DNA from: Heterodontus francisci
Taxonomy: Eukaryota
Reading direction: 5' to 3'
Assembly: GCF_036365525.1 (NCBI RefSeq)
Contig: NC_090381.1
Coordinates: 65,434,950-65,498,949 of the forward strand
DNA length: 64,000 nt
Shown here: positions 1,819-60,099 of the stretch, piece by piece
Layout of the letters: each line of letters starts with the position of its first letter
Numbering within the stretch: position 1 is the stretch's first letter
Translations under genes and position numbers: made by a program
Notes under the pieces: model-generated
Seen by the model: only the letters and a program-made list of their open reading frames with translations
Told to the model about the DNA's origin: nothing
The model's database searches: none

Positions 1819-1956
1819 CATATCCTGGACTCCTCTGAATGTCGCATCCATGAACATCAGTTTCCAGGGCTCGGAGACGGTGTTCGGTATTGGGATGTAC
1901 ACGTAGTAAGCTGTCAAAGCCGCAGCGATCACGATCACTGGGACTGTTGGTCGCAT
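1819..1956 (-). CDS. NCEH1: Neutral cholesterol ester hydrolase 1 (AADACL1), first coding exon; rest of gene lies left of the window
   Basis: Translates MRPTVPVIVIAAALTAYYVYIPIPNTVSEPWKLMFMDATFRGVQDM (46 aa), colinear with human [46 protein letters not shown]. Followed by a GTATAG donor (phase 0). An in-frame ATG lies one codon upstream at 1959. Syntenic with ECT2. Confidence 0.93.
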
Positions 1957-1959
1957 CAT

Positions 1960-2545
1960 TGCAGAATTCGGGGCAAAAAATGGAAATGCTCGAAGAAGCA
2001 GAGACACACATTTCCTGCCTTTCTGTTACTCAACGCCAGCCTCACAGGGACCAATCAGGTCGCTGCGGCTTTATCAGTCAGCCTATCGGGCGAGGAGGGT
2101 GGGACGTTGGGAATTGTAGTTTTTTCTGTATGGTAATTTTGCGAAATGACGGGCCATGGGTGTGACAGGACGAAAATGACTAAGCGAGAGGTGCACTGCG
2201 CAAAAATAAAACCCGGGAACTGAGAAAAAGACTGAATGTCATCAGGAATAGGAGCTGTTTAGGCCTACTGAAACTCCTCTAATGTGGGATTGCAAACCAA
2301 AGGGCGGTGCTGATTGCTCCTTAAAGGGTGATTGCAGGTTTTTTTTAAATGCAAATAAAGGCGTTAATATTTATGATTAAACATTGACCTTGGTACATTG
2401 CCTAGGATTAAGGAATGCGAATGCTTTGTATTCTTTCTCCAGCGTTCGAATCCAGGTGCCGGGTTCCAAGTGACGTCACCGCCAGCGGGCCGCCATCTTT
2501 TTTACAGGCAGAGGGGCTGTGAGCATTCGTGGCGGCGGCTACAAG
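1960..2545. promoter_or_regulatory. CpG-rich bidirectional promoter NCEH1 <-> THAP gene
   Basis: Start codons are about 590 bp apart, head-to-head. Motifs: CCAAT 2051-2055; TGGGAATTGTAGT 2108-2120 (reverse of ACTACAATTCCCA, the ZNF143/THAP11 motif); CRE TGACGTCA 2471-2478; YY1-type GCCGCCATCTT 2489-2499. Confidence 0.8.
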
Positions 2546-2616
2546 ATGCCAGTGTCGTGCAGCCTGTTGGACTGCAAGAATCGCTTCAAGAAAGGGAGCG
2601 GCATCACTTTCCACAG
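2546..2616 (+). CDS. THAP-domain protein, exon 1 (MPVSCSLLDCKNRFKKGSGITFHR)
   Basis: ATG in ACAAGATGC context; C-x4-C and FHR motif typical of the THAP N-terminus; 71-nt coding exon ending in phase 2 at AG|GTACCC. Confidence 0.9.
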
Positions 2617-3219
2617 GTACCCTGCCAGGCTGCTAGGAGGCCAACTTTCCCTTCCAAAATTATTTCGATCAGGTTCTAACTTTAATCTTTTAGAGCAGAT
2701 GGGTAAGGCACGGTGACACAGGATAGATGGCGATTTTAATCGTTTACCGCAGGGTAACAGCAAAGTTGGTCAGTTCGTGCACAACAGGCCCCCTCCAAAG
2801 CGGTCGCTGCAATTGATTTGCTGCTGTTTTGTATGTTATTACATCTCATCGGATATGTTGTATTCGTTCCTATCTGCGATTTCGTTTAATAGCATTTCCT
2901 GCATTTTAAAACAGGTTTGCCAAGGCACTTTACTATGGGGTATGAAATCTGACATTTGGAAGGCGCTTCTCTTTATGCTTTTTTCCCCCCAATGTTTTAT
3001 TCCATTATCCTGCCTCAACCCTACCCTCCCTTCTTCAGTAGACGGATAGTACAGTCTGTATACATACATCTGCATCTCATAGGCGAACATGGCTTCATTC
3101 ATTAGTTTCTGTTATTGTTTCCTAAATATATTTTCTTAACTAACTCAAACCAAGAAAATTACTTATAAAAGGATTTCAAGAAATGGCCTTCCCACACTCA
3201 AATACGAAATGCGTGATGT

Positions 3220-3748
3220 ATGTGCTTGCTTGCCATTTCAACACACACCCCTGCTCTCATGCCAACATTTCTGTCTTTGGCCTGCTCCAGTGTTCTAGTC
3301 AACATCAACACAAGTTCAAGGAGGAGCTCCTGATCTTTCGGTTAGGCACTCTACAGCCTTGCGGACTGAACATTGAGTTCAATAACTTCAGAGCATGACT
3401 GGCCTTTTAATATTTTATTTTTTTAACCATTTCCCTGCTTTTTACGTAGTCAGGACTGCTCACTATTCCGCTATTAACACTCTTCTTGGACTAATGCTTT
3501 GTCTTTCGCCACAAGCATGAACACACGCTTTGCCTTTGTCCCAGGACAGGTTGTTATTTAATCTCCCCTACCCTATCAGACACCTTCCCCTTTGTTCTCT
3601 CCCCCACCCCCTTTCCCCTTCACTTGCTTAAAATCTGATTCTTTTCTAACCTTTACTAGTTCTGATGAACGGTCACAGACCTGGAACGTTAACTTTCTCT
3701 ACAGATGCTGCTGACCTGCTGAGTATTTCCAGCACTTTTTGTTTTTAG
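3220..3748 (+). mobile_element. Penelope-like retroelement 3' fragment (GIY-YIG endonuclease C-terminus plus terminal repeat)
   Basis: ORF ACHFNTHPCSHANISVFGLLQC...EELLIFRLGTLQPCGLNIEFNNFRA*. Downstream AGTTCTGATGAACGGTCACAGACCTGGAACGTTAACT is a hammerhead-like core with GAAA>GGAA, followed by the CAGATGCTGC...CCAGCA end motif. Confidence 0.8.
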
Positions 3749-4132
3749 CCAGAGCAATTTATGGGATTGGCCATGAATTGTTGGCCTGTATTGCTGCTGA
3801 CCTTGCCAAATACAGTGATAATGCCAAGCACGTGTAGCCTTGTGCTAGGGAATGGTGTGAAGATATATCACAGCAATCTCCCTAACAAGAAAAGTCCAAG
3901 TTTGACCGAGTGGCTTTCTTGAATCAGAAACAGCGTAGTTACATAAAAAACATCTTGAGGTTAGAAGCTAGGTAACAAATGTGATGAGCTGACTATGTAT
4001 ACTTAATAGTTATATGCTCAAAGTAACGTTGGGAATGTGGGAATTTGGGTTTCTGGTTCAGCGCAATGATTATGCTTGGGACTGATGGCTTATGGGGGGA
4101 AAAAACTTGAGTGGTACCAGCTACATAACGTG

Positions 4133-4493
4133 AGTTTAGTTTTTAGTTTAGTTTAGAGATACAGCACTGAAACAGGCCCTTCGGCCCACCGAGTCTGTGC
4201 TGACCACCAACCACCCATTTTATACTAATCCTACACTAATCCCATATTCCTACCACATCCCCACCTGTCCCTATATTTCCCTACCACCTACCTATACTAG
4301 GGGCAATTTATAATGGCCAATTAACCCATCAACCTGCAAGTCTTTGGCATGTGGGAGGAAACCGGAGCACCCGGAGAAAACCCACGCAGACACAGGGAGA
4401 ACTTGCAAACTCCACACAGGCAGTACCCAGAATTGAACCCAGGTCGCTGGAGCTGTGAGGCTGCGGTGCTAACCACTGCGCCACTGTGCTGCC
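4133..4493 (-). mobile_element. HE1-like V-SINE
   Basis: Near-identical to 575-924; (CTAAA)n tail. Confidence 0.9.
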
Positions 4494-4718
4494 TGTGTTT
4501 GGCACTAGGGAGTTCTGCTGGCTGTAACCGGTCTATTGACCAGATTAGTCTATGTTTAGTCTATTGGTTTCTAGAGCTTCTATGACCTTGTCATTCTGAA
4601 TGGTGTGGTTGAGCTGATCATCATCCCCTGGGATGGTGACATTACTTCCTAGAATATCATTTTGATGAGTCCATTTGGTGGTCAGATTATCTGTTCTACT
4701 TGGATTCCCTGCTCTGCT

Positions 4719-5171
4719 GGTTCACTCAACTGATTCCAGAGATGAAGGGGTTATTTTATGAGGAAAGCTTGAACAGGTTCGGCCTTTATCCATTACAGTT
4801 TAGAAGAATGAGAGATGATCTGATGGAAACATATAAGATCCTGAGGGGACTTGACATGGTGGATGCTGAGAGAATGTTTCCCCTTGTGGGAGACACAGAT
4901 TAAAAATAAATCGTCTCCCATTTAAGACAGAGATGAGAAGAAATTGTTTTCTGAGTGCTGTTAGTCTGTGGAAATATCTTCCCCAGAGAGCAGTGGAATA
5001 TTGAATATTTTTAAGGCTCAGTTAGATTCTTGATTGACAAGGGAGTCAAAGGGTATGGGGAATAGACAGGAAAGTAGAGTTAAGGCCACAATCAGATCAG
5101 CCATAATCTTAACAAATGGCGGAGCAGGTTCAATGGGCCAAATGGCCTACTCCTGCTCCTAGTTCGTATGT
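4719..5171 (+). mobile_element. CR1 LINE 3' fragment
   Basis: FTQLIPEMKGLFYEESLNRFGLYPLQFRRMRDDLMETYKILRGLD (CR1 ORF2 C-terminus) and a GGCCAAATGGCCTACTCCTGCTCCT 3' tail. Confidence 0.88.
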
Positions 5172-5975
5172 CCAGTGAATCCACCTTATGCACTCGCAAC
5201 TGCATCAGCTGGTTGCCTTAACTTTCTCCTTTCTTGATCTCAGATAAATTGGACAATTAAGTGACACAATTATCTCTGCTTGTAGCTGGCTTGTATGTCA
5301 TGCAACCTGATTTGTGTAATCTCTCAACTCTGTTCTGAATACACTTTGTACTTGTAAAGATATCATTCTGCACTTCTAGGTAAAGATTATTACAAAAGAA
5401 GACAGAGAATCTGCTGAGAGGTGTGCCAAGCAAATTACAAGTCAACTTGAAACATAAAGAAAAAAGCCTTTCTGTTCAATTGACCAATCTGGAAGATGTA
5501 TGGCAAAAGCGTTTAATATCTGAACAGCCATGTAGGAGTTCTGTAAAATCTCAAGTTAATGTGGTGTGGATATCTAGGCATGTGAGACAACACTCCACCA
5601 CCTCCTAATTTCTTGGTCTTTCCTTCAACAAAGAGTCCTACTAAGGACCAGATAAAGCATGACATATTTATGCCCCAGTAACGAGTTATTTCTGAGCTCA
5701 GCCCTTAATGCTGGCCTCTTATCACTGGTAATAAGTGTTTCATTTCAATATACATGGTCATAAATTAACTAGTTTCTCATCAATCTGTTCAACAGACTCT
5801 ATATTGTAAACCTGACAATATAAACTCTTTTCAGGAAAAATTTGAGTCAATTTTCAGGGTATTTTCTCAACATTCTCCTGCTCATCCACCTTAACGTCAG
5901 CTGAAGAGCCACAGAAATTCCAGGCAGACAACATTTTTTTTCTGCTGTTTCCACAGTTCTTTAAAAAAAAAAACT

Positions 5976-8885
5976 ACTTCTTCTTCTTTGGCCTCCTTGT
6001 CTCGAGAGACAATGGGTAAGCGCCTGGAGGTGGTCAGTGGTTTGTGAAGCAACGCCTGGAGTGGCTATAAAGTCCAATTCTAGAGTGACAGACTCTTACA
6101 CAGGCGCTGCAGATAAAATTGTTTTCCGAGGCTGTTACACAGTTGGCTCTCGCCTTGAGCTTCTGTCTTTTTACCTGCCAACTGCTAAGTCTCTTCAATT
6201 CGCTACACTTTAGCCCCGCCTTGATGGCTGTCCGCCAGCTCTGGCGATCACTGGCAACTGACTCCCACGACTTGTGATCAACGTCAGAGGACTTCATGCC
6301 GCGTTTGCAGACGTCTTTAAAGCGGAGACATGGACGGCCAGTGGGTCTGATACCAGTGACAAGCTCGCTGTACAATGTGTCCTTGGGGATCCTGCCATCT
6401 TCCATGCGGCTCACATGGCCAAGCCATCTCGAGCGCCGCTGGCTCAGTAGGGTGTATATGCTGGGGATGTTGGCCGCCTCGAGGACTCCTGTGTTGGAGA
6501 TACGGTCCTGCCACCTGATGCCAAGGATTTTCCGGAGGCAGCGAAGATGGAATGAATTGAGACGTCACACTTGGCTGACATACGTTGTCCAGGCCTCGCT
6601 GCCGTAGAGCAAGGTACTGAGGACACAGGGTTGATACACTCGGACTTTTGTGTTCCGTGTCAGTGTGCCATTTTCCCACACTCTCTTGGCCAGTCTGGAC
6701 ATAGCAGTGGAAGCCTTTCCCATGCGCTTGTTGATTTCTGCATCGAGGACAGGTTAGTGGTGATAGTTGAGCCTAGGTAGGTGAACTCTTGAACCACTTC
6801 CAGAGTGTGGTTGCCGATATTGAGGGATGGAGTATTTCTGACGTCCTGTCCCATGATGTTCGTTTTCTTGAGGCTGATGGTTAGGCTAAATTCGTTGCAG
6901 GCAGCCACAATCCTGTCAATGAGTCTCTGCAGACACTCTTCAGTGTGGGATGTTAATGTGGCATCGTCAGCAAAGAGGAGTTCCCTTTGGTCTTCGCTCT
7001 TAAATGGGCAAGGTTGAACAACCTGCCATCTGATCTTGTGTGGAGGAAAATTCCTTCTTCTGAAGACTTGAACGCATGTGAGAGCAGCAGGGAGAAGAGG
7101 ATCCCAAACAGTGTAGGTGCGAGAACACAGCCCTGTTTCACGCCACTCAGGATAGGACAGGGGTCTGATGAAGCACCGCTATGTTGAATTGTGCCTTTCA
7201 TATTGTCATGGAATGAGGTGATGATACTTAGTAGCTTTGGTGGACATCCGATCTTCGCTAGTGGTCTGAAGAGACCACGTCTGCTGATGAGGTCAAAGGC
7301 TTTGGTGAGATCAATGAAAGCAACGTAGAGGGGCATCTCCTGTAGCTGGTGAAGGGAGAACAGCATGTCAATGGTGGATCTCTCTGCTCAAATGCCACAC
7401 TGTGCCTCAGGATAGACACGCTCAGCCAGCTTCTAGAGCCTGTTTAAAGCGACTCGAGCGAAGACTTTCCCCACTATGCTGAGCAGGGAGATTCCACGGT
7501 AGTTGTTGCAGTCACCGCGGTCACCCTTGTTCTTATAGAAGGTGATGATATTGGCATCGCGCATGTCCTGTGGTACTGCTCCCTCATCCCAGCACAGGCA
7601 AAGCAGTTCATGGAGTGCTGTGAGTATAGCGGGTTTGGCACTCTTGATTATTTCAGGGGTAATGCTGTCCTTCCCAGGGGCTTTCCCACAGTTTAGTTTA
7701 GAAATACAGCACCGAAACAGGCCCTTCGGCCCACCGAGTCTGTGCCGACCATCAACCACCCATTTATACTAAATCCTACACTAATCCCATATTTCTACCA
7801 CATCCCCACCTGTCCCTATATTTCCCTACCACCTACCTACACTAGGGTAAATTTATAATGGCCGATTAACCTATCAACCTGCAAGTCTTTGGCATGTCGG
7901 AGGAAACCCACGCAGACACAGGGAGAACTTGGAAACTCCACACAGGCAGTACCCAGAATTGAACCTGGGTCGCTGGAGCTGTGAGGCTGCGGTGCTATCC
8001 ACTGCGCCACTGTGCCGCCCACTGGCTAGAGAATCAATGGCATCACTGAGTTCCGATTTTGTTGGCTGTTCGTCCAGCTCATCCATGACGGGCAGAGACT
8101 GGGATGCATTGAGGGCGGTATCAGTGACAACATTTTCCCTGGGGTACAGTTCTAGGTAGTGCTCCACCCAGCAGTCCATTTGCTTGTGTTGGTCAGTGAT
8201 TGTGTCCCCTGATTTAGATTTGAGGGGGGCTATCTTCCTGATGGTTGGCCCAAAAGCTCTCTTAATGCCATCATACATTCCTCTGATGTTTCCGGTGTTC
8301 GAGGCCAACTGAATACGACTGCATAGGGTTGGCAGTAGTCATTTGCGCAGCGCCTGGCCGTTCTTTGAGCAGCGCTTCTGGCTGCTTTTAAGTGCTACAG
8401 ATGTTAACTCACTAGGGGCTTTCTTGTCGTTCAACAGTGCAATGCATTTAGCGGCTATGACAGGATCCAGCTCTTCAAAGTGAGATTGAAACCAATCTGT
8501 GTTCTGCTTCACATGTTTGCCATAGGTGGTCATTGCTGAGTCATAGATGGCGCCTCTGATGTGGGCCCACTTAGTCTCTGCATCCCCTGTAGGAGTGTTT
8601 TTTGAAGGGCTTTTTCAAGTGAGTTTAGAAACTTATGTAACAGCTGTGGATAAGAAATTCTGTTAGTGTTGATGCGCAGGCGGCCCTTGTGCTTGGAGTG
8701 ACGTAGCTTCTTTGGTTTGAGTCTAACCTTGCTGCACACCAGGGCGTGGTCGGTGTCGCAGTCCGTACTGTAGAAGCTGCATGTGATTTGAACGCTGTTT
8801 AAAGAGGCTCGCCTTGTGATGATGAGGTCCAGCTGGTGCCAACGACGTGATCTTGAGTGCCTCTAAGAAACCTTGTGACAGGGTT
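5976..8885 (-). mobile_element. RTE-clade LINE, 5'-truncated and frameshifted (endonuclease end, RT, C-terminal Cys/His motif)
   Basis: ORF pieces NYRGISLLSIVGKVFARV, AFIDLTKAFDL, GVKQGCVLAPTLF, FTYLGS, RMEDGRIPKDTLYSEL and CSACVRVCHSRIGLYSHSRRC; (AAG)n tail near 5976. Confidence 0.9.
7692..8020 (-). mobile_element. HE1-like V-SINE nested inside the RTE LINE
   Basis: Same SINE sequence with a small internal deletion. It interrupts the RTE ORF between DAIDSLASG and KAPGKDSIT. Confidence 0.9.
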
Positions 8886-9429
8886 TTAAAAACTATGCAG
8901 CGGGAAAACCCCCAAGGAAATTCAGCTCCCAGATATCTAACTCCAACTAATACATCTTGCATGCTGTCTTGCCATATTCTCCTCTTCAAAACTGCTGAAA
9001 GATTAAAAAATTAAATACATAGCTGCAGGAATATTAAAGGTCGCTCATTTAGGGTTTTCACAATAATAGCTAGTCATGGAATTCAATCTCCAAAGCACAA
9101 GAAATCATACCAGGATACCACTTACTATAAATAGAATTTTACTTATTTAGTTCCTATAACTTAGTGGACCTGATGTTTCCCCTATGTGGCATAAACAGGC
9201 CTATTGTCATAAAGCAGTATATCCTCTGACGCGCCATGGGCAACGCTGCTGGAGATTTGTAGTATATGTTTTAATTTTGGAATTTTAGCTCCATCAGTAT
9301 TGCTACACTTTGAGTCTACATTAAAATCATGGGATCTTACAGTATAGAAAGATGCCATATGGCCTGTCGTGTTTGTGCTGGCTTATTCTCGGAGAGAATT
9401 TCTAATAATTTTGTTTCCTACCAGTAGGG

Positions 9430-11497
9430 TCGATTGGTAAGACACAATCTAACATGATAGAATTTTTCATTAAGATGGAGAGTGAAAGAGTTGATTCTGA
9501 GACTAGGGTCCTGAATCTAAATAAAGGAAACTATGAAGGTATGAGGCACGAGTTGGCTATGATAGATTGAGGAGTGTTACTAAAAGGGTTGACAGTGGAC
9601 AGGCAATGGCTAGCATTTAAAGAGCACATGGATGAATTACAGCAATTGCTAATTCCTGTCTGGTGCAAAAATAAAACAGGAAGGGTGGCTTACAAAAGAA
9701 ATTAGGGATAAAATGGCCAGAACAAGCAGCAAACCTGAGGATTGGGAGCAGCTTAGAATTCAGAAAAGGAGGACAAAGGAATTGATTAAGAAGGAGAAAA
9801 TAGAGTATGAGAGTAAGCTTGCAGAGAACATAAAAACTGACTGTAAAAGCTTCTATAGATATGTGAAGAGAAAAAGATTAGTGAAGACAAATGTGGGTCC
9901 CTTACAGTTAGAAATGGGGAATTTATAAAGGGGAACAAAGAAATGGCAGACCAATTAAATACATACTTTGGTTCTACCTTCACAAAGGAAGTCACAAATT
10001 ACTTCCCAGAAATGTTGGGGAACATAGGGTCTAGTGAGAAGGAGGAACTGTATGAAATCAGTATTAGTAGGGAAATTGATCGGATTGAAGGCCGATAAAT
10101 GCCCAGGGCCTGATAATCTACATCCCAGAGTACTTAAGGAAGTGGCCCTTGAAATAGTTGATGCATTGCTGGTCATTTTTCAAAATTCTATAGACTCTGG
10201 AACAGTTCCAATGGATTGGAGGGTAGCTTATGTAACCCCGCTATTTAAAATGGAGGTAGAGAGAAAACATGGAATTATAGACCAGTTAGCCTGACATCAG
10301 AAGTGGGGAAAATGCTAGAGTCCATTATAAAAGATGTAATAGTAGAGCACTTGAAAATAATGACAGGGTCGGACAAAGTCAACATGGATTTACGAAAGGG
10401 AAGTCATGCTTGACAAATCTACTGGAATTTTTTGAGGATGTAACGAGTAGAATAGATAAGGGAGAACCAGTGGATGTAGTGTATTTGGATTTTTAGAAGG
10501 CTTTCGATAAGATCCCACATAAGAGATTAGCATGCAAAATTAAAGCTCATGGGATTGGGGTAAGGTACTGACATGGATAGAGAACTGGTTGGCAGACAGG
10601 AAATAAAGTGTAGGAATAAACGGGTGTTTTTCCGAGTGGCAGGCAGTGACTAGTGGGGTACCGCAGGGATCAGTGCTAGGACCCCAGCTATTCACAATAT
10701 ATATTAATGTTACAGATGAGGGAATTAAATGTAATATATCCACAATTGCCGACGACACAAAGCTGACTGGGAGTTGAGGAGGATGCAGAGAAGCTCGAGT
10801 GTGATTTGGACAGGTTGAGTGAGTGGGCAAAATACATGGCAGATGCAGTATAATGTGGATAAATGTGAGGTTATCCACTTTGGTGGCAAAAACAGAGTAC
10901 AGGAGCAAGGCTGTCTTGCTGCAATTATGCAAGGCATTGGTGAGACCACATCTGGAGTATTATGTGCAGTTTTGGTCCCCTTATCTGAGGAAGGATGTTC
11001 TTGCTATGGAGGGAGTGCAGCAAAGTTTCACCAGACTGATTCCTGGGATGGCAGGACTGACGTATAAAGAGCGATTGGGTTGATTTAGGCTTGTATTCAC
11101 TAGAGTTTAGAAGAATGAGAGGGGATCTCATAGAAACCTACAAAATTCTAACAGGATTGGACAGATTAGATGCAGGAAGGATGTTCCCGATGGCGGGGAA
11201 GTCCAGGGCCAGTAGTCACAGTCTAAGGTTAAGGGGTAAGCCGTTTAGGACTGTGATGAGGAGGGATTTCTTCATCCAGAGAGTGGTGATCCTGTGGAAT
11301 TCTCTACCACAGAAAGCAGTTGAGGCCAAATCATTAAATATTAAGAAAGAGTTAGATATAGTTCTTGGGGATAATGGGATCAAGGGATAAGGGGAGAAAG
11401 CGGGAACAGGTTACTGAGTTTGGATGATCAGCCATGATCGTATTGAATGGCGCAGCAGGACCGAATGGCCTACTCCTCCTATTTTTCTGTGTTTATG
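9430..11497 (+). mobile_element. CR1 LINE ORF2 fragment (decayed)
   Basis: KCPGPDNLHPRVLKEVALEIVDAL, RPHLEYYVQFWSPYLRKD and RRMRGDLIETYKIL, with stops and frameshifts; CR1 3' tail. Confidence 0.92.
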
Positions 11498-12971
11498 GTC
11501 AATAATCTGACAATTATGTAGATGCCATTTTTACTTTGTTCTAATGGTATGAAAATTACATTTAGATGCTTGAGAGGCAATCTTTGAGGACGAAACAACT
11601 GATTTGATGGATCTCTTCGCAAGAAGTAATTTAAAATGAAACCAATTCCCAATTTGATCAGTGTTGTACGAAGATTCTCGTATTATGACTTCCTGGACAT
11701 TAAAGGAAAAAGTGGAATATATCCCATCCTATTTCTGGTGCATAAAATGGCAGATGGGTTCATTGTTTACCTGGAAGCCAGCTTTCCTTTGTAATTTGTG
11801 CACAACAAATATCAGTTTATAAAAATCGCAAACTTGACTGACGTCTCTGAGCAGGAATGATAAGTTTTGGGATACAACCCAAATTGCAACAAATAAAATT
11901 AGATTTTGATATGTTGTAAAATTGTTCTTTGTTTACCATTTTTGGGCTCATGATTTAGGTATTTACTGTGTATGGTGAGGTCACATGAAACAGTCCTGCA
12001 CACCTATCTTTGATCTGTCAGTCTGCGCTTGGACAATGAGGTTGTAGAATACATGAAAAATTGTCAGATTGTATTGTAGTGCCATTTTGAGGGTGGATAT
12101 TTCAAAGAAAAGCTTATTAGTCTTTTCATTATTTGTTTGTACGAATTTAAGGATTAGAACTTTCAATAGTATACTTCCATGGGAATTGTTTTGCTCCAAT
12201 TGCTTTGTCTTTGTTTGGTTGCTGTGTTCATCAACATCTGAGGAAAAATCCATAATGCGTACTTGTTTAGTATGAATTGCTTTATTTAAGTAACAATTAC
12301 ATAACAGGAAATATGTTTTTCTGATTTTACTTATATGCCAAGTAATATGAAATAATGTTTAAGATTTTCATTTTGAGTCTTGTGTGAATTTATGACTGTA
12401 CGCTTTTGTATCCAGTAATTTGCACAACTTGATTTTAGTTTGGAGGGATTTGTCTGTTTTCACAGGAGGTACTTGTAAGCGAGATTTATTTTGAGAGTTT
12501 ACTGCAGTTATCTTTATTGTTTCTTTCTTCAGTGCCATAGATTATACCAGCATCAGACAACCTTATTATTTTTTGCATTCCCACTAATATATATTTTCTA
12601 ACTTATCAATGTGTATTGCAGTTATTTTGTGTCCTGCTGCTGAGTTTGTTTGTTTTCACTTCGGAAGAGCTGCTGACCTGTAATGGTTGCTAATCTAATT
12701 TTTATCACTTAAATCCCACCATTCTATTAAGAGAATTTAACTGACCAAACTCAGTTAATTGTCAAGTGAGTTTCAAGATAGCTCAGCAGAATGGAGCAGC
12801 TGCTAATGATCAGTTATGCCCAGAGTTGCAGAGCAGATGCATTGACTGATAAGTACAGCATCTCAATAAATATAAAAATCTGAAAATGCTAATGAGGATA
12901 CTTGCAGTTTCACTAAGTTTTTTTTATATTGAATCCCTACTTTTGGTTTATTTTGTGTTCTGTCTACGTAG

Positions 12972-13158
12972 ATTTCCTATTTCAAGACCTGACCTCATGG
13001 CAAAATGGCTGAAAGCTGTAGCACGGGAAAACTGGATGCCATCACCAAGATCAACTCTCTGTAGTGATCACTTCACAAAAGATTGTTTTGAAGAACGGAA
13101 TGATAGAAGGCATTTAAAATTCTCTTCCATTCCAACCATATTTCCATCTCAAAATAAG
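12972..13158 (+). CDS. THAP-domain protein, exon 2 (FPISRPDLMAKWLKAVARENWMPSPRSTLCSDHFTKDCFEERNDRRHLKFSSIPTIFPSQNK)
   Basis: Pyrimidine tract plus TAG acceptor; phase 2 matches exon 1. Contains the conserved P, W, C-x-x-H-F and the AVPTIF-like box (SIPTIF). Ends AAG|GTACAG, phase 0. Confidence 0.92.
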
Positions 13159-13197
13159 GTACAGTTTCAACCATTTATTGTGTGTCATTCATTTTAG

Positions 13198-13538
13198 ATT
13201 TAGATTTAGAGATACAGCACTGAAACAGGCCCTTCGGCCCACCGAGTCTGTGCCGACCATTAACCACCCATTTATACTAATCCTACACTAATCCCATATT
13301 CCTACCACATCCTCACCTGTCCCTATATTCCCCTACCAGCTACCTATACTAGGGGAAATTTATATTGGCCAATTTACCTATCAACCTGCAAGTCTTTTGG
13401 CTGTGGGAGGAAACCGGAGCACCCGGAGGAAACCCACGCAGACACAGGGAGAACTTGCAAACTCCACACAAGCAGTACCCAGAATTGAACCCGAGTCGCT
13501 GGAGCTGTGAGGCTGCGGTGCTAACCACTGTGCCGCCC
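13198..13538 (-). mobile_element. HE1-like V-SINE with 8-bp target-site duplication
   Basis: Same SINE family; flanked by CATTTTAG at 13190-13197 and 13539-13546. Confidence 0.9.
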
Positions 13539-14239
13539 CATTTTAGTAAATCATTTTTGATAACTTGTTGATTAAAACTTAAATTTTTGCCCTAGGTGAT
13601 CACAAGTTTTCACAAGTATGTCACTGGTCAGCATGGGTAATCTTGTACACTTTTTGTAAAGACTTTTTAGTTCTCCATTACATATCAAATAACCCAAATC
13701 TTGATTGCTTTAGATAACTTAACAATTTAAAATATAGCTGACTGAATTAAATCGCTACCAAAGCATTAGTGTGTTGGAAGAAACCTACTGAGAAAGTGTC
13801 CTCAAAAGCACGATCTCTGTGGTACACTTTGATCTGGTGCACTGTTATTAACTGTCAGTGGCTCAGAAGAATTGTAGGCAGTATTTTGTGTGGGATTACT
13901 GAATTGTTCTGCTTTTACTGGCTGTTGAAGTCAAGGATGTCACTGAGGGGTTCTTCTGAAGAATGTATTAATGGATTTTTTTTTTAAATAAGGTACAGGT
14001 TTTGACTTGAGGGTTTTTGAAGACAGTGGTGTGGTGGTGAGTATGGTGATGGGTGTGGGGGGGGGGAGGTGTATTAGTTTATATTCTAAAAATTATAATT
14101 TTGAATGGCCCCCAGAGTTTCTTTACCACTGGGTAAATTGAGTTCAAATTATCTCATAGATGGTATGATGCAGTGCAAAATGTGTTGCGTTTTTTTTTTA
14201 CAGAAGAGCAAACAAACATAAATTTTAACTATTTTGCAG

Positions 14240-15199
14240 ACTACAGGCTCCAGAAGGTCATATAAGGCAAAGTCTTCTGATGGATATCATAAGGGAACTT
14301 CGGAGGTACAGATGGCAGATTTCCTGTCGCAACCTGATTCAGTTGATGAAGTATTAAGCCAGTCAACTGAGCAAACTAAAATCACAAATTTACAGTCTAC
14401 ATTAACTACAGAGACACTTAATACAGGGAGACTAGCTCAACTAGCAGCAGCAGCAGTCCTGAATTTAGCAGAATTTTCTCAGGTTTTGGAAGTTCCTGTA
14501 AAACCAGAAGCAGAGTCTTCAGAAGTCCCCACACTATTTAAATGCAGTTCACAAACTCATACATGCACAACAGATGCAAAGATGAAATCAGTTTCAAGCA
14601 AGTTAATAACAGTTCATTCAGAGGAAAAATCTCAAGATTCAGCTGCAGTTCCATGTTCAGATGCCCTCCATTGGACAGCCAATGTATTATCGAGACCTAA
14701 AGTACTATCGGATACATCCACTGTGCTTGTGGGCTCAGTGGATGTATCTGCAGTGTCCACTAGTGTTCCCTGTTTATTTACAACATTTACAGATCTAACA
14801 TCTGAGCGAGTAACAACATCAGAAGAAACAACTTGGATATCTACAGAAGTGCTTATCCCAGAAACAGAGATCACACAACCATCCACTCCAGTCTTTGCTT
14901 TTGAAGAACTGCAGTGTTCCTCTGAGACTATGCTTTCTTCTTCTGATGATCAAGATGTGTCAGGAATGACATTTTTTCAGGATCACAGTTACTTTATGAG
15001 TCCTTGCCCAGATACCATCAGGAGAACTCTAGAAAAGAAACTTGCATGGGAAAGAAAGAAGAATGAAGAGCATAAGCAAAAATTCAGAGTACTCCAACAA
15101 AAACTGAGAAGAAAAGAGCAGAAAATTGACAATCTCACCAAACTCATCAACCAGCTGAGAGAAAGTAAGACTGACCGTCTGTGGAACAGTAATGTATAG
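14240..15199 (+). CDS. THAP-domain protein, terminal exon 3 (Ser/Thr-rich linker, DHSY HCF-1-binding motif, coiled coil)
   Basis: TTTTGCAG|ACT acceptor in phase 0 opens a 319-codon ORF. DHSY lies at 14981-14992, followed by a K/R/E/L-rich heptad region (LEKKLAWERKK...LQQKLRRKEQKIDNLTKLINQLRE), the standard THAP+HBM+coiled-coil layout. Total about 405 aa. Confidence 0.85.
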   Translation, partial: TTGSRRSYKAKSSDGYHKGTSEVQMADFLSQPDSVDEVLSQSTEQTKITNLQSTLTTETLNTGRLAQLAAAAVLNLAEFSQVLEVPVKPEAESSEVPTLFKCSSQTHTCTTDAKMKSVSSKLITVHSEEKSQDSAAVPCSDALHWTANVLSRPKVLSDTSTVLVGSVDVSAVSTSVPCLFTTFTDLTSERVTTSEETTWISTEVLIPETEITQPSTPVFAFEELQCSSETMLSSSDDQDVSGMTFFQDHSYFMSPCPDTIRRTLEKKLAWERKKNEEHKQKFRVLQQKLRRKEQKIDNLTKLINQLRESKTDRLWNSNV

Positions 15200-20800: not shown

Positions 20801-20980
20801 TGCATCTTCACTAGCTATTGCCTTAGCATTTTTTAAACTTGTCTCAATATGCAATCGTTATAACTTTTTTTTCAAAACCATTTTGTGGGAAAATAGCCAA
20901 ATAATCCCTAGACACAACAGTTCTCCCGTTAAATCTATTTAGTGGGTATCCAACATGTGTTCTTTCTGTACTTTTAGAGC

Positions 20981-21199
20981 ATGATGAACATGAACAAGGA
21001 GAGGAACTGGACCAAACACAACAATGTTACTGAAATGGAGAAGTTTCTGGAGATTGTGTGGGTGCGGGAGCAGATAGTTAGTGGTCTTGTGTCTGAAAAG
21101 ACAGATAACAGTGTGTATTTCGTTGACAAAGGAGATGCAAAGAAATATCTGCTCCACAATAAAGGAAAGTTGAAGCCTCTGTGGATTGACCTAATTCTA
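20981..21199 (+). pseudogene. NOP53: Intronless fragment of NOP53 (GLTSCR2/PICT1) N-terminus, probable processed pseudogene
   Basis: NKERNWTKHNNVTEMEKFLEIVWVREQIVSGLVSEKTDNSVYFVDKG...KPLWIDLILD aligns with human NKKRGW...[34 protein letters not shown]...KPLRVDLILE. Conserved Arg residues appear as W/Q (CpG decay). Confidence 0.75.
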
Positions 21200-23072
21200 G
21201 ATTACAATTTGAGCATGTTATTGGCAGCTCAGCAAAACAAAATCTCTGTTTTGATATTTAATTATTTTTACTTATATCTAGAATATTAGATAATAAATTT
21301 TAGTACAATGTCAAACAGTGGTGTTAATAGCTTTCTCTGACAGAAAGTAAGGAAGAGATATATAAAGTAATGATGCCTATTTCTGTGTTTGGGGATGTGT
21401 TCTGCCAGATTTTGTGAGCACAGAATAATGCAGGTCAGAGAAGCAGTTGTCACCAAGTTGTCCTGGGCAAATTCGCAGGTGCTGCACATCCTTTGGCCTA
21501 TTGCAATTAGGCAAACCTGGAAATACAGGTGTGTTTGGGTGCTTACAGAATGTTCACATTTTTTGCACATGTATAACAGGGTTTTTTTTTAATTACTTTT
21601 ATTAGGAAATAAAAGCTACAAGCAATTAAAGCAGTACAGAGAGAAGCTTGTCCCAGGGAACAAAATGTGTTGATATCAAAGAAGCCAGGTACTATATCGT
21701 GTGAAAGCTGTGAGAGCAGGAAAGAGTGGATGAGTTCAGGGAGAAAGCAAGCGTAGAAAAATAACAGAACTAATAAAGAGAAGCAGTTGTGGGAACCCTT
21801 AAGGAAATTGATAAGAAACAGCAATAGGCAAGAATTAGAGCAGAATAGCTCCAGGATCAAAGCAGGTTCCTATTAAAGCAGCTGGAGGACATGGCAAGAA
21901 ATCTCTGGGAGTGCCAAAGAGTGGGTAGGTTTAGGGAGGAAAACAGGCCCAGGAATATAGCATGAACTGGCAGGACAAACGGGAGTAGGTAGTGGGAAGC
22001 CTATTTTAAATTGTTCTGAACCTTTGACACCAACATCTCCCAAATTGAGTTTCTTCCCTTACGTCAGTCACCAAAATTAACCATACTTCTATCAACTGCT
22101 AAATTTAAGTTCTGTAGTGCTGCACCATAGAATAGCTCCACTGCTTGCCAGAAAAAAGTAGCAATCGGGTGATGAAAACTGGAACTAGAAAGTAACTGTG
22201 ATTCACAGCTTAATCCCCACTGAGCAGAAATTCTAAGATTGAATCACAAACCGGTATTCATTTCCACCCACTGAGCATAAAAATCACGATTGGACCAAAA
22301 TGCCCTATTGAAACTTTTTCCTTGACTTCGCCCAACCCCTTCACTCAATTAACAAAGAGAACACAAATTTCCCCTCCAGTACTGAACCCCAACTGGAGCA
22401 GAACTATCATCACCATATCCACAACACCATATTAGAATTTCTCCCACTGAGCACAGGTATTGTACAAACTTTTTCCGTGTTACATTTGGGCCCCATTAAT
22501 TCCTAAATGCGCTCACAGTTGTGGAGGGAGCACACAACCATCACAGCACCCGTACAGAGTACAAGTGTAGTAATTGCACTCTATCAGTCCCAGCTGAGCA
22601 ATACAGAGGAGCCAACTGTCCCTAAGTCAAGCAATGCCCCCTTCCACATTGACCATTGTTTTGGTAATCGGACCCCACATTCTTGATCTGAACAGATCTA
22701 TCTCCTTTCTGCAACCCCCCTCCCACCGCAACCCTGACACAGACCAGCCAAATAACCTTGCGCTTTGGGAACTGCAAACTAGCCTCCCTGTCAAAGCACA
22801 TTTCACCTACTCCGATATGGAGCCAAACTCTCCGTTGCGACCTGGTGAGGAGGGGTCGAAGGGCTCCCCTCTTTTCTCTCTCTTTATTTGACCACAACAG
22901 ATTTATTTCTTTTTTAAGTAGATATACTTGCTAATTCAGTGAGTGTTTATTTGTTTACACGCTGTGATCATAAAAAGAGCCAAGTGGACAGATTTTCCCA
23001 ATTTTAACAAAGAAAGAGGTTAACTTTATTGTACTTAAACCATTCTAAGTAAAATAATATACACTCCAATTT

Positions 23073-34369: not shown

Positions 34370-34518
34370 TTGGAACATGCAGAAAACGTTGGAATCACTC
34401 AGCAGGAATAGAGTTAACCCTTCAGCTCATCTGATGAAAGGTGTTTTTTCTCTTTCCACAAATGCTGCCTGACCTCCTGAGTATTTCCAACATCTGCAGT
34501 ATTTAGCTTTTGTTTCAG
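34370..34518. mobile_element. Fold-back Penelope-end-derived element upstream of the ECT2 promoter
   Basis: Left arm GTTGGAATCACTCAGCAGG is complementary to right arm CCTCCTGAGTATTTCCAAC; central CTGATGAAAGG. Confidence 0.6.
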
Positions 34519-34545
34519 TAGCTCGCTCAAAAGATCATTTTTATC

Positions 34546-34801
34546 CCAATCGAGGACGGTGGTTCGCTGACCAATCAGACATGGCTTATGTGTCGTCAGA
34601 CCCAATCACAGATGATACAACGTTAATTCCAGCGTGAACAACCAATCAGGAAAAGCCGTTTATGCCTATCAATGGAATATCAGTATGGACCAATGAGACA
34701 AGCGTTTAGGACGGTGGCTGGAAGTTTGAATTTTTTTTGTTGGCGGCGGTGGGAGCTGAGGTTCCAAAGCCGTTTGAAGACGATAAAGCGCGAAATTTAA
34801 A
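34546..34801 (+). promoter_or_regulatory. ECT2: ECT2 G2/M cell-cycle promoter: five CCAAT boxes, CDE/CHR and E2F-like site
   Basis: CCAAT at 34546, 34571, 34602, 34642 and 34690; GGCTG-GAAG-TTTGAA at 34716-34730 (CDE-4nt-CHR); second TTTGAA at 34773-34778; GCGCGAAA at 34788-34795 followed by TTTAAA; CpG-rich. Confidence 0.8.
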
Positions 34802-34945
34802 TCGGAGTTTGCTTTAAAACACTTGTCGGCAGGGCCGCGGGTTGCGTGAGTGGTGTAGTGTGTCGGAGGCCCCTTTGATTTAGAGGGAGCCAGCTGTTGG
34901 TCTGTTTGTCCGGCCGCGTCGTCGCTGCTCGAAGCCTGGGTGACA

Positions 34946-35048
34946 ATGGCTGAGTGGAGCGTAGAGGCCGCCAGCGCTGGGAGTCTCCTGTCCGCCTTCG
35001 ATTCCAAGGAACACCTGCTGGCCGAGGCCGCATCGTACGCCGTTGAAG
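34946..35048 (+). CDS. ECT2: ECT2 first coding exon (MAEWSVEAASAGSLLSAFDSKEHLLAEAASYAVE)
   Basis: ACAATGG Kozak context; resembles human MAENSV...IFDSK...KENLL...SYVEE; G|GTAACG phase-1 donor matching the next exon. Confidence 0.8.
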
Positions 35049-35333
35049 GTAACGAAAATATTTCTGTAAGGCTCTGGTTCCCGTGTCCGAACGCGGTCAC
35101 GGAGTAGTCGCCACCATTCCCCCGGTATCTGGTAAAAATCCAAACTGCAGCAATGGCTGAGCCTTCCATTGAAGGGACAACGCTCTTTATTCCAACAATA
35201 AAAGATTCTTGTAACTGCATTTCTTCCTGATACACCCACATGTTGGGTGATGTAAATATTGTAACAAACTGGTATATACACACATCGACTGAAGCTGAAA
35301 TATTCACTGTAAACAGGCTTCAGGTTGGACACT

Positions 35334-35513
35334 AATACAAAAGCAAAAACTGTGGATGCCGGAGTTCTGAAACAAAAACAGAAAATGATGGAAAGTTTCA
35401 GGCCAGGCAGCATCTGTGGAGAGAAACAGTTAACGTTTCAGGTCGTGACCTTTCGTTAACTCTTTCTCGACAGATGCTGCCTGACCTGAATATTTGCAGG
35501 ATTTTCCGTTTTT
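35334..35513. mobile_element. Fold-back element made of two opposed Penelope ends, flanked by 17-bp direct repeats
   Basis: CAGGCAGCATCTGT...GTTAACG / CGTTAAC...ACAGATGCTGCCTG inverted arms; GCTTCAGGTTGGACACT (35317-35333) and GCTTCAGGTTAGACACT (35514-35530). Confidence 0.75.
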
Positions 35514-35639
35514 GCTTCAGGTTAGACACTGACCTGTGCTGATATATGTACTTTATTAAAAAAACTGCTGCAGTTAGTGAAACGCTGATCATTACATATA
35601 AATGCTTACAATTGGAATAAAGTGTTTCTGATGCAACAT

Positions 35640-35775
35640 TAAAATAAAAGCAAAATACTGCGGATGCTGGAAATCTGAAATAAAAACAAGAAATGCTGGA
35701 ACCACTCAGCAGGTCTGGCAGCATCTGTGAAAAGAGAGGCAGAGTTAACGTTTCGGGTCAGTGATCCTTCGGAAC
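35640..35775 (-). mobile_element. Penelope-like terminal-repeat fragment
   Basis: Reverse complement of the 55331-55464 and 15740-15829 motif (…TGACCCGAAACGTTAACT…CAGATGCTGCCAGACCTGCTGAG…). Confidence 0.8.
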
Positions 35776-35914
35776 ATTGCTAGCTTAATACGTCCGACAG
35801 ATGTGTAAAGATATCATAAATGCTTTTGTTAGGAGTAGGGAATGTGTAATATTAAGATGGTGTATGCTGTTATGTTAATTATGTTAAAGGTGCTGTGTAA
35901 ATACAAGTTGCTGT

Positions 35915-36310
35915 TTACAGAATCACAGAATTGTCACAGCGCAAAAGGAGGCCGTACAGCCTGTCGTGTCTGTGTTGGCTCACCTAAGGAGCAATTCCCC
36001 TGGTGCCACTACCCCATCTTCTCCCTGTAGCCTTGTGCAATTTTACTTTTCAGATAACAATCCAATTCCCTCTTGAATGCCTAGATTGAAACTGCCCCCA
36101 TCACACTCTCAGGCAGTGCATTCCAGATCCTAACCACTTGCTGCAAGAAAAAGTTTTCTGCTGTCGTCATTGCTTCTTTTGCCAATTACCTTAAATCTGT
36201 GCTCTCTTCCTGAAGCTTCCACCAATAGGAACAGTTTTTTCTTATCTAGTCTGTTCAAACCCCTGAAGATTTTAAATATCTCTATCAATTCTCCTCTCCC
36301 TTCCATGGTC
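35915..36310 (-). mobile_element. CR1 LINE 3' fragment, decayed
   Basis: Minus strand RGELIEIFKIFRGLNRLDKKKLFLLVE...HRFKVIGKR; CR1 tail. Confidence 0.75.
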
Positions 36311-36584
36311 CTAATAGTGTAACATTTTCTCTTTGGCCAAAATGTGCAATTATAGTGTGCCATGCTCAAGTTGGCATTATGCATTATAAATATGGATATA
36401 AGGAATTGATGGTGGAAATCAAAAAGCAATGCATGGCTTTGAAATGGGCACTGTATTACATATGTATATCCTGCTTCAATTATTCACTGTCCTCTAGCCC
36501 TCCTTCATTTGAAAACTGCCTTTAATCAGTGCCATGAGAGATCAGCTAATGTTTTTTATAATTTTTTTTGGTTCTGTTTTCTAG

Positions 36585-36661
36585 ATGTACCTCTGATTCA
36601 AACAAAAGTTGCGTTAATGGGAAAGGTTGGGGACACTGAAGAGATTCTGAAAGCCTTGGAG
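36585..36661 (+). CDS. ECT2: ECT2 exon (DVPLIQTKVALMGKVGDTEEILKALE)
   Basis: Pyrimidine tract plus CTAG acceptor, GTAATG donor; human EMPQIETRVILVQEAGKQEELIKALK. Confidence 0.88.
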
Positions 36662-37812
36662 GTAATGACTTCAGGTTTAAAACTTCAATTGCAATCATTA
36701 TCTTTTCATCTGTAGGTGTCGATGTTGTATTAAGAATATTTATATTTTGATATTTTCTGGTTCTTTTGTTACTGTGGTAATCCATCATATTAGTAAAACA
36801 CTTGACAGATTCCTAAAATGTTGTAAGAAACAGTTTTGGGTAAGAACATGCAATCTTTCTTTTATAAAGTAGATTGTTTTAGTTTTTCTCTTTTTTGCTT
36901 GAAAATTTGAGACCTTTTTATTCTTGCCCAAACGCAGTTCTGTAAGCCTTGGTAAGATAAACACACAAATTTCTTGCCAATCCAGGGGTTCTTGTATCCA
37001 TGCCTTTAAAAGTTGACCCATTATTGAGGATTGTAGAGTTATGTTTGTGATGAGCATTTTTTGTAAGACTCTGATAGCTGTTGCATTCTGCATATCATTT
37101 TACTGTTAATAGTTGACGCATGAAATGTCTTGAGTGTCCAAACCCAAATCCCACTTCCAGCTTTTTTTTAATGGCATCACTCTGAAAATAGTCAATTTGA
37201 CAAGCTATTTTCAACTAAATACCAATAATACTTTTGGCTGCTGTCTCAATTTGCTGGTCTGGCACATAGCTCCAACATCAGTTTCACAAGTAATGGCTAA
37301 AGCTGAACTATTGATATAAAACTGTGCCAATATTTGACATCTTTTGAGGTAGAACATTTCAGTGGTTAACTGTAATTCAGTCCCATTTTACACAATGTAA
37401 CTAGCTAGGTCCTGACTTTTATATTTTGGCACATAGTGTTTTTCACGTTTACTTCATTGGTTCTTGGGAAAAAGCTATTTCCTTTTTTATCTGTACCTTC
37501 CCAAAGCTATGTTAGGATAGGTTGAATGGGGCACTGATACCTCAAGTGGCCGTTAGTAATGAGTCTGGACTGTGAACGCTAGTGGGCTGTAACCAAGGAG
37601 TGGGGGGGGGGGGGGGGGGGGTGTTTGGGGGAAGGGAAATGGCAGGCATTATTGTACCTGATCCTGTATTCACCTGATATCCATGCAAAAAGAAAAGACA
37701 AATAGACCTTATAACACAATGCACAAAGCTGCAATATAGCAATAAATGGAGCTTTTCTGCATCCAAATCCAGTGGTGTACTTTTTTTGGTATTAGCTCTT
37801 GATCCTTCACAG

Positions 37813-37905
37813 ACAGTTAAAGAAATTGAAGTTCCTATGATGGTGAAGGAAAGCATGCCTAATAGCAAGTTGGGACAACGGTTTATAAAATCAATTGCAA
37901 ATATG
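37813..37905 (+). CDS. ECT2: ECT2 93-nt cassette exon homolog (TVKEIEVPMMVKESMPNSKLGQRFIKSIANM) with non-canonical donor
   Basis: 31 aa colinear with the human alternatively spliced TIKIMEVPVIKIKESCPGKSDEKLIKSVINM; CAG acceptor; donor position reads ATAGGT. Confidence 0.6.
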
Positions 37906-46130: not shown

Positions 46131-46139
46131 CGGTCACTT

Positions 46140-48580: not shown

Positions 48581-48589
48581 TTTCCAATT

Positions 48590-60039: not shown

Positions 60040-60099
60040 GTGGGTTGACAGGTTTTTTTTTTATGTTCTATTGAGATGTATGAAATGTTTTTGGAATCA

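Follow-up and report, generated by a model that had tools for sequence, protein, structure and literature searches.

THAP domains share core residues (P, W, F, P and an AVPTIF-type box), and a THAP domain followed by an HCF-1-binding motif (HBM) and a coiled coil makes up the front half of P-type transposases. The finger of THAP1 has six specificity residues, Q3, K24, Y50, S51, S52 and R65 (PMC2879526), and the HBM rule reads D/E-H-x-Y at 1-13 residues from the coiled coil (10.1101/813352). Human THAP5 carries an HBM yet failed HCF-1 co-immunoprecipitation (PMC13631171), so the presence of the motif is no guarantee of HCF-1 binding. Human has five more THAP genes than mouse (10.1101/813352), and zebrafish has 32 (PMC13631171).

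A THAP gene of the horn shark and its neighbourhood

The window, which is the whole 64,000-nucleotide stretch of horn shark (Heterodontus francisci) DNA analysed here, contains a THAP gene with the following features and neighbours:

1819..1959, minus strand: first coding exon of the divergently oriented upstream gene; open for 47 aa between ATG 1959 and a GT donor, with a signal-anchor-like start
1960..2545, no strand: promoter region shared by the two divergent genes; CpG-rich, 587 bp from one ATG to the other
2108..2120, minus strand: exact THAP11/ZNF143-type site ACTACAATTCCCA (sequence match)
2546..2616, plus strand: exon 1, 71 nt; start codon and first two zinc cysteines
12972..13158, plus strand: exon 2, 187 nt; remainder of the THAP zinc finger up to the IPTIF box (Pfam THAP E 1.3e-11)
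14240..15199, plus strand: third exon in its long form (960 nt), encoding an S/T-rich linker, the HBM and the coiled coil and ending with the stop
14399..14497, plus strand: conserved motif in the middle of the linker (residues 140-172), for which a short helix is predicted
14981..14992, plus strand: HCF-1-binding motif DHSY, residues 334-337; putative by motif
15008..15160, plus strand: coiled coil, residues 343-393
20978..21033, plus strand: alternative exon 4 of the RefSeq isoform; adds an 18-aa acidic C-terminus
20978..21286, plus strand: decayed NOP53-like sequence under exon 4 (Pfam Nop53 E 1.5e-10), in a different frame from exon 4
34500..64000, plus strand: ECT2, the downstream neighbour; promoter CpG island and 5' exons

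The exons at 2546-2616, 12972-13158 and 14240-15199 (71 + 187 + 960 = 1218 nt, plus strand) splice into a frame of 405 aa plus stop with no internal stops; both introns are GT..AG, and AATAAA occurs at 15201 and 15658, downstream of the exon 3 stop. An initial annotation had described a complete three-exon gene of ~405 aa, and its ends, splice sites and open frame were confirmed, but a fourth exon had been overlooked. The RefSeq model of the horn shark gene (412 aa, four exons, named THAP5-like) leaves exon 3 at an internal splice donor directly after 15164 and continues into a fourth exon at 20978-21033; the gene therefore reaches past the interval 2546..15199. The four exons translated from the window reproduce the 412-aa RefSeq protein letter for letter. 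The locus is thus already annotated, under names that vary by species (THAP5-like, THAP4-like or uncharacterized). An assembled-read protein (P0012; longest contig 1713 nt) crosses the exon 2-3 junction, so the spliced transcript is probably made in a ray-like animal.

The exon-4-type protein end is present in 7 of 14 homolog records. Exon 4 sits on a decayed NOP53 copy, which matched PDB NOP53 over residues 43-123 (E 2.4e-4) and contains stops downstream in all three frames. A NOP53-derived exon would be a datable example of a new protein tail arising from a dead gene copy.

The divergent upstream neighbour at 1819..1959 is presumably NCEH1; Pfam and PDB searches with this minus-strand exon gave no match. 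ECT2 lies downstream on the plus strand, as previously annotated: the exon at 58587-58691 matches ECT2 structures (E 2.9e-16), and further ECT2 exons were also located. The human NCEH1-ECT2 interval is not known to contain a THAP gene. No description of the shark gene was found in the literature searched (subscription papers and supplements lay outside its scope), which likewise returned nothing combining NCEH1, ECT2 and synteny and nothing with five locus or accession identifiers.

CpG o/e is 0.72-0.81 across 1501-3000, and the promoter region contains CCAAT, CRE-like and YY1-like elements as consensus matches. Site ACTACAATTCCCA occurs once in the 64 kb against 0.01 expected (1/100 shuffles), and its sequence is that of the TBS probe in PMC3627581. 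The gene lies head-to-head with its presumed NCEH1 neighbour at a single CpG island carrying this THAP11/ZNF143 site, so that one THAP factor may regulate another. An Rfam scan of 1-36000 gave no matches.

Candidate DNA-binding, cofactor-binding and dimerization modules

Pfam THAP (PF05485) spans residues 5-81 (59.8 bits; cut-off 23.9) and is the sole family on the full protein. The intact C2CH domain, DHSY and C-terminal coiled coil reported initially were recovered as zinc ligands C5, C10, C54 and H57, DHSY at 334-337 and a predicted long helix. Finger residues 3-81 align without gaps to human THAP1 (PDB 2JTG, 2KO0; E 2.4e-21), including P26, W36, F58 and P78, and the AVPTIF-type box reads SIPTIF. 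The suggested likeness to THAP1 is therefore real as an alignment, but it is generic: other THAP domains score equally high, and the base-reading residues are not kept. The equivalents of the THAP1 specificity residues are V3, R24, R50, S51 (A in most orthologs), T52 and E65, so that at most one of the six is retained. The N-terminal finger, whose fold is taken from the gapless alignment, would bind promoter DNA, and its target would be expected to differ from the TxxxGGCA of THAP1 because these residues differ. With its scaffold unchanged and its base-reading residues altered, this finger offers a natural test of target choice by THAP fingers.

DHSY conforms to the D/E-H-x-Y HCF-1-binding motif (PMC13631171), with D334, H335 and Y337 invariant in 14/14 homolog records. 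Six residues separate it from the helix start at 343, which fits the 1-13 rule. By analogy with the family, the motif would dock on the Kelch propeller of HCF-1 and so recruit chromatin co-regulators.

AlphaFold2 with 14 sequences gave a mean pLDDT of 45, with the finger unfolded and the coil as the sole confident part (long C-terminal helix 343-409; pLDDT 82-98 across 341-400). The homodimer model of the coil scored 0.46 against 0.14 for the best control, with contacts agreeing 100% between runs and pLDDT of at least 79. The same mark was reached by 21/30 solved pairs and 0/23 single chains in a microbial benchmark, and by 17/29 pairs and 0/30 single chains in a eukaryote benchmark, whose pairs include 7/16 from animals and 1/7 lacking an older solved relative. 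The structure of the THAP11 coil has been solved (5AJS; PMC6402169), so resemblance to coils already solved may explain the score. A parallel homodimer of the coiled coil is thus model-supported, and it would bring two fingers to paired sites across a disordered linker of ~250 aa. Residues 140-172 of this linker are conserved, elasmobranchs being identical at 28-33 of the 33 positions and Callorhinchus at 23/33; a helix at 147-162 is predicted at low confidence.

Distribution and origin of the gene

A word-indexed search yielded 14 hits among 1359 candidates, all named ones chondrichthyan and forming one cluster per species; the horn shark gene has orthologs in 12 further named species, comprising sharks, rays and a chimaera. 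Two parts are conserved best, the THAP finger and the module of DHSY and coiled coil: identity to Callorhinchus is 38/49 in the THAP domain and 49/63 in HBM plus coil, as compared with 13/53 in the first linker. A word-indexed full-length profile search added just one insect protein among the 8000 candidates listed. These searches are insensitive, in that the one for shark orthologs missed the coelacanth and the one naming Latimeria LOC106704418 missed the sharks; absence elsewhere is therefore judged solely from an exhaustive profile search of 1.84 billion representatives (library clustered at 50%, predicted proteins only), from its best 150 of 4091 rows.

The THAP-HBM-coil order of a P-type transposase front half, together with the ~25% of the window that is repeated within itself, could be read as a transposon remnant or a pseudogene without host function. 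The frame is open and conserved domain by domain from chimaera to rays, and the exons are unique, with 0% repeat cover. Pfam detected no P-element catalytic or HTH domain on the 412-aa protein or in 50 ORFs scanned (42 of the plus-strand ones in 15.2-34.9 kb, 7 minus-strand and 1 inside ECT2; 87 had been listed), in agreement with the initial report of no transposase catalytic region. When the upstream flank was compared with the downstream one in inverted orientation, the top match (22.3 bits) lay within the 20.3-30.2 bits of 30 shuffles. Nor did we find the multicopy, TIR-flanked transposon that had been raised as a contrary outcome, since there is no TIR and the gene is single copy in the window. 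We consequently rejected the transposon reading and consider a functionless remnant highly improbable. By descent, as established for the family, the gene would represent a P-element-type transposase reduced to its THAP-HBM-coil front half, the catalytic half being absent.

Among the best 150 of 4091 rows, the sole non-chondrichthyan one with the C-terminal module as its best stretch was the coelacanth row P0028, Latimeria chalumnae LOC106704418 (XP_014346923). It scored 85.9 bits on the C-terminal profile, as compared with 30.9 for the next row, and is identical at 40/61 positions of HBM plus coil, as compared with 20/61 for the next best of 140 rows scored. Nine mammal-like rows of the best 150 entered none of the scores or trees, which therefore lack THAP5 and mammalian THAP1/3/4. 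As in sharks, the coelacanth protein has a long S/A/P-rich linker (~245 aa in both), then HBM and coil, and stops right after the coil; its size is about that of exon 3 alone. The coelacanth model differs in lacking the THAP domain, and its linker is not alignable beyond chance: 211/500 shuffles were as high for Heterodontus, 14-31/500 for four other species and 151 for Callorhinchus. The mid-linker motif also matched the coelacanth protein in hhalign, but this match failed shuffling (133/1000 as high) and was rejected. The coelacanth match, a link of 61 residues in sequence comparison, speaks for an ancient paralog rather than a gene confined to chondrichthyans.

The shortness of that link and the linkers aligning no better than chance would also suit a chondrichthyan-only gene, sharks and coelacanth having separately domesticated related P-element-like transposons; the C-terminal likeness would then be transposon kinship, and the transcription-factor mechanism would be unchanged. 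HBM plus coil modules of like style do occur in many transposon-like THAP proteins, such as P0103, where Pfam Tnp_P_element follows. However, 40/61 is twice the identity of any transposon-like row (20/61), and the shared linker length and abrupt end after the coil also argue against separate domestication, which we regard as unlikely.

Among the 140 rows scored from the best 150 of 4091, nothing from ray-finned fishes, lungfish or tetrapods matched as strongly as the coelacanth. Rows P0016, P0017, P0021 and P0022 were rejected as bony-vertebrate orthologs; they rank high only from summed repeated THAP domains, and they form their own clade and match the C-terminus weakly. The ancient paralog could still be present in gar, bichir, lungfish or amphibians and have been missed here, with little or no loss, given the 50% clustering, the restriction to predicted proteins and to the best 150 rows, and a coelacanth model that itself lacks THAP exons. 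Yet a THAP finger with a coelacanth-grade C-terminus would far exceed the 75.5-bit floor of the best 150, whose high scorers are multi-THAP proteins with C-termini below 12 bits, and we find a missed paralog distinctly unlikely.

In a quick tree of 83 THAP-domain columns, covering neither THAP2 nor THAP5-12, nine chondrichthyan rows formed one clade (SH-aLRT 100, stem 0.48) outside the THAP1-like (11), THAP3-like (18) and THAP4-like (4) groups, whose labels were assigned by eye. A sister position was not rejected for any of them (p-AU 0.19, 0.56 and 0.42, respectively) or for a THAP-DDE family (0.60). THAP4 carries a nitrobindin domain; the full shark protein has the THAP family only, and it falls inside neither the THAP3 nor the THAP4 clade. 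The earlier view that no clear human ortholog can be assigned is supported, and none of the 140 scored rows matches the C-terminal module like the coelacanth.

Alternatively, a named human THAP, THAP5 being the likeliest candidate, might have its ortholog here, diverged and moved to a new locus. The label THAP5-like on 8/13 named hits and the nearest Atlas clusters (THAP5 0.96, THAP5-like 0.95, THAP8 0.93) point in this direction, as does a similar coil position, and the named paralogs in the tree are the THAP1-, THAP3- and THAP4-like ones. With THAP clusters set aside, the Atlas gave only a 0.85 lead. A 1:1 ortholog should, however, match the C-terminal module as the coelacanth does, and 0/140 scored rows do so; the RefSeq labels, moreover, are automatic and inconsistent (THAP4-like or uncharacterized elsewhere). 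The short finger motifs characteristic of THAP5 were absent from 154/154 kept rows, shark proteins included, and the neighbours here, ECT2 and presumably NCEH1, differ from those of THAP5, PNPLA8 and DNAJB9. We consider such a relocation quite unlikely.

Since it seems to have a counterpart in the coelacanth but none that is clear in human, this is probably an old vertebrate gene lost by other lineages. Of the two origins initially proposed, an ancient paralog lost in mammals is favoured in its first part, the loss looking wider than mammals, whereas a chondrichthyan-specific domesticated transcription factor stands as a domesticated THAP factor, its restriction to chondrichthyans being weakened by the coelacanth protein. 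On balance, we think it more likely than not that this is a single-copy host THAP-family transcription factor gene, unlike the named THAP paralogs tested, which probably dates from the last common jawed-vertebrate ancestor, was kept in cartilaginous fishes and probably the coelacanth, became lost or unrecognisable in ray-finned fishes and tetrapods, and acts by the mechanism proposed above. More tentatively, and with rather less confidence than doubt, it may be an undescribed, ~430-million-year-old jawed-vertebrate paralog with its own DNA specificity between NCEH1 and ECT2, driven from a THAP11/ZNF143-type divergent promoter. It would survive in cartilaginous fishes and the coelacanth after two losses, one in ray-finned fishes and one in the lungfish/tetrapod line, and galeomorph sharks would later have given it an acidic tail when a NOP53 retrocopy became an exon in another frame. 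If the main reading is right, a missing branch would be added to a family usually drawn from 12 human genes, the misleading label THAP5-like would be corrected in many shark genomes, and there would be one more gene common to sharks and coelacanth and missing from model animals.

Comparison with named THAP proteins

The shark protein shares with human THAP1 the zinc ligands, P26/W36/F58/P78 and an HBM directly before the C-terminal coil, and presumably a first coding exon of 71 nt. It is about twice as long, lies outside the THAP1-like clade, and THAP1-like C-termini score below 12 bits on its C-terminal profile. Like human THAP5, it has ~400 aa with THAP domain, long linker, HBM and a coil near the end; it lacks the THAP5 signature motifs and has other neighbours. 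The coil lies at 331-372 in human THAP5 (PMC6402169) and at 343-393 here. With THAP9 and P-element transposases it has in common the THAP-HBM-coil order of their N-terminal half, and it differs from them in having no HTH, catalytic domains or terminal inverted repeats. Its working model would be that of THAP11/Ronin and THAP7 with HCF-1, namely a THAP finger, a D/E-H-x-Y near the coil and a predicted parallel homodimer, although sequence comparison with THAP11 structures gave nothing up to E = 10. A shark THAP gene is not very surprising, because THAP genes are known for quick turnover and its mechanism would be that of known members; the gene adds a family member to THAP and is no new kind of system.

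Gene model and genomic setting

The three exons proposed in the initial annotation (2546-2616, 12972-13158 and 14240-15199, + strand) were confirmed, with GT-AG introns and 1218 nt encoding 405 residues with no internal stops, and exon 3 is 100% identical to the RefSeq Heterodontus francisci protein 'THAP domain-containing protein 5-like'. However, describing them as the complete gene overlooked a fourth exon: in the RefSeq model, splicing from a donor that follows 15164 joins a shortened exon 3 to exon 4 (20978-21033), and the four window exons reproduce its protein letter for letter. Among 14 homolog records, counted as one representative per cluster and possibly hiding further isoforms, the exon-4 tail occurs in 7/14, all of them galeomorph sharks, the read-through end of the initial model in 6/14, and Callorhinchus has its own end; both the exon-4 and read-through C-termini are real in the family. 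Exon 4 uses, in a different frame, the 5' part of this feature:

20978-21950 (+): decayed NOP53-like copy

Another frame over exon 4 resembles the NOP53 N-terminus (Pfam Nop53, E 1.5e-10; PDB NOP53 residues 43-123, E 2.4e-4) and the sequence past this match is riddled with stops, suggesting that exon 4 is a decayed NOP53 retrocopy exonised in a new frame. Just 5' of exon 2, 12791-12865 (+) matches the alternative N-terminus of Heptranchias isoform X2; in an isoform of this type, the first two zinc-binding cysteines would be missing.

THAP is the sole Pfam family on the protein, and its C2CH domain is intact, as claimed (59.8 bits, cut-off 23.9; C5, C10, C54 and H57 present). Residues 3-81 of the finger align gaplessly with human THAP1 (E 2.4e-21), and P26, W36, F58 and P78 are also retained. 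The DHSY and C-terminal helix were likewise recovered, at residues 334-337 and from residue 343, and structure prediction made the linker disordered (pLDDT about 30).

Of the placement between NCEH1 and ECT2, the downstream side was borne out: ECT2 lies on the same strand, with an exon at 58587-58691 matching ECT2 structures (E 2.9e-16), further exons at 43.8, 45.0, 50.1 and 59.1 kb, and a CpG island at 34.5-36 kb. On the upstream side, the minus-strand 47-codon exon beginning at 1959 is taken to be NCEH1, a name that Pfam and PDB searches did not confirm. No THAP gene is known to lie in the human NCEH1-ECT2 interval. The upstream gene and the THAP gene are head-to-head, with 587 bp between this exon and the THAP start codon. 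This divergent promoter contains the window's one exact ACTACAATTCCCA (2108-2120, - strand; 0.01 expected), described in PMC3627581 as a THAP11 site overlapping ZNF143 sites, which are enriched at bidirectional promoters. CRE-like (2471) and YY1-like (2492) matches lie closer to the THAP start. In the ECT2 promoter (34500-34830), five CCAAT boxes spaced about 25-48 bp from one another and a CHR-like TTTGAA at 34725 form what we take to be a G2/M cell-cycle layout. Within ECT2, a candidate open exon at 63479-64000 (+), with a good upstream acceptor, is more than 170 codons long and is cut by the window edge; it had no Pfam match, no such exon is known in human ECT2, and it may be a long fish-type ECT2 insert or a separate gene.

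As initially proposed, this is a host gene with no transposase part: in 50 scanned ORFs, Pfam detected fragments of retroelement integrase and RT, plus Nop53, and no P-element domain. The best inverted match between the flanks was at chance level (22.3 bits, against 20.3-30.2 in 30 shuffles), all four exons are unique within the window, and on these grounds the transposon reading was rejected. Long inverted repeats in the window are opposed repeat copies, mostly of what we take to be LINE-like families. CR1-like and other LINE pieces lie across the introns, and between the THAP gene and ECT2 (~22800-31600) are decayed remains of Gypsy-type LTR retrotransposons, with integrase and RNase H-like parts. 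A further repeat, identified by eye, has one copy within a LINE in intron 1:

590-925, 4150-4495, 7690-8020 and 13195-13540 (+): SINE-like repeat, ~330 bp, four copies

Conservation in cartilaginous fishes and a probable coelacanth counterpart

Searches with exon 3 retained 14 of 1359 candidates, one cluster each: 13 chondrichthyans, horn shark included, and one assembled-read protein. The latter, from a contig no longer than 1713 nt, continues across the junction of exons 2 and 3, suggesting a spliced transcript of the gene in a ray-like animal. Residues identical to those of Callorhinchus numbered 38/49 for the finger, 23/33 for a mid-linker motif and 49/63 for the HCF-1-binding motif (HBM, D/E-H-x-Y) plus coil, against 13/53 for the first linker, a module-wise conservation that, judged from sequence, looks like purifying selection. 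Two short motifs, residues 140-172 and 281-295 of the 412-aa RefSeq protein (14399-14497, 14822-14866), are kept from chimaera to rays in an otherwise drifting linker; neither had a family match, and both are candidate partner-binding sites.

A profile of 14 sequences retrieved 4091 of 1.84 billion representatives at E 0.001. Among the best 150 of these 4091, a single row outside chondrichthyans had the C-terminal module as its best-matching stretch: a coelacanth protein, Latimeria LOC106704418 (85.9 bits on the C-terminal profile, runner-up 30.9), with 40/61 identical residues and no gaps, against 20/61 for the runner-up among 140 rows; nine mammal-like rows were kept outside all scores and trees. 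Because word-indexed searches missed the shark-coelacanth pair both ways, the lack of comparable matches elsewhere derives from the exhaustive profile search alone. The coelacanth protein had no THAP domain in a Pfam scan. With an overall size close to that of exon 3 by itself, it may come from a model that failed to include the THAP exons. Its linker is similar in length and make-up, with alignment scores not above shuffles (211/500 as high for Heterodontus, 14-31/500 for four others, 151/500 for Callorhinchus; 133/1000 for the mid-linker motif), and we therefore rejected an hhalign extension into this linker as independent support.

Relationship to known THAP paralogs

A quick-search tree (LG+G4) of 129 THAP domains over 83 columns, with THAP5 absent, placed nine chondrichthyan rows in one clade (SH-aLRT 100, stem 0.48), separate from the clades that we labelled by eye as THAP1-like, THAP3-like and THAP4-like. 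AU tests on 50 rows rejected none of four sister unions (p 0.19-0.60). Of the initially noted THAP1/THAP3 resemblance, the likeness to THAP1 is generic, since many unrelated THAP domains, THAP1-like included, score 84-90 bits on the chondrichthyan profile.

Orthology with THAP5 would agree with the RefSeq THAP5-like label on 8/13 chondrichthyan hits, the THAP5 names of the top Atlas clusters and a coil position similar to that given for THAP5 in PMC6402169. However, THAP5 motifs occurred in 0/154 kept rows, and the neighbourhood is unlike that of THAP5. The gene is real and conserved and is probably an ancient, unnamed THAP paralog; its current annotation probably bears the wrong name. No description of it was found among open-access papers, supplements aside; PMC4797157 and PMC3424704 added no shark synteny.

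Two other families were met. P0016, P0017, P0021, P0022 and P0043, an unnamed family with its own clade, carry two to three tandem THAP domains, a terminal DHxY and a coil. P0067 and eight relatives make up the second THAP family, which is strongly conserved; one of its members has a DDE_Tnp_1_7, not P-element, transposase domain.

Predicted mode of action

The HBM lies six residues before the helix. A parallel homodimer model of residues 330-396, made with no alignment, scored 0.46 against 0.14 for the best control, with 100% contact agreement and pLDDT of at least 79. The mark applied was reached by 21/30 solved pairs and 0/23 single chains from microbes, and by 17/29 pairs (7/16 in animals; 1/7 with no older solved relative) and 0/30 single chains from eukaryotes. 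The coil may form a parallel homodimer, and its score may reflect likeness to the solved THAP11 coil.

By analogy with the family (PMC13631171 and 10.1101/813352), the finger would bind promoters zinc-dependently, the dimer would read paired DNA sites, and HCF-1 would be recruited via D/E-H-x-Y. This recruitment is not assured, because THAP5 carries the HBM yet failed HCF-1 co-IP, according to PMC13631171. The already annotated gene would work like known THAP factors, and lineage-specific gain and loss is already a known trait of the family. All members of the chondrichthyan family share R50, T52, R66, R69 and R70; against the six base-reading residues of THAP1 in PMC2879526, the shark protein has V3, R24, R50, S51 (A in most orthologs), T52 and E65.
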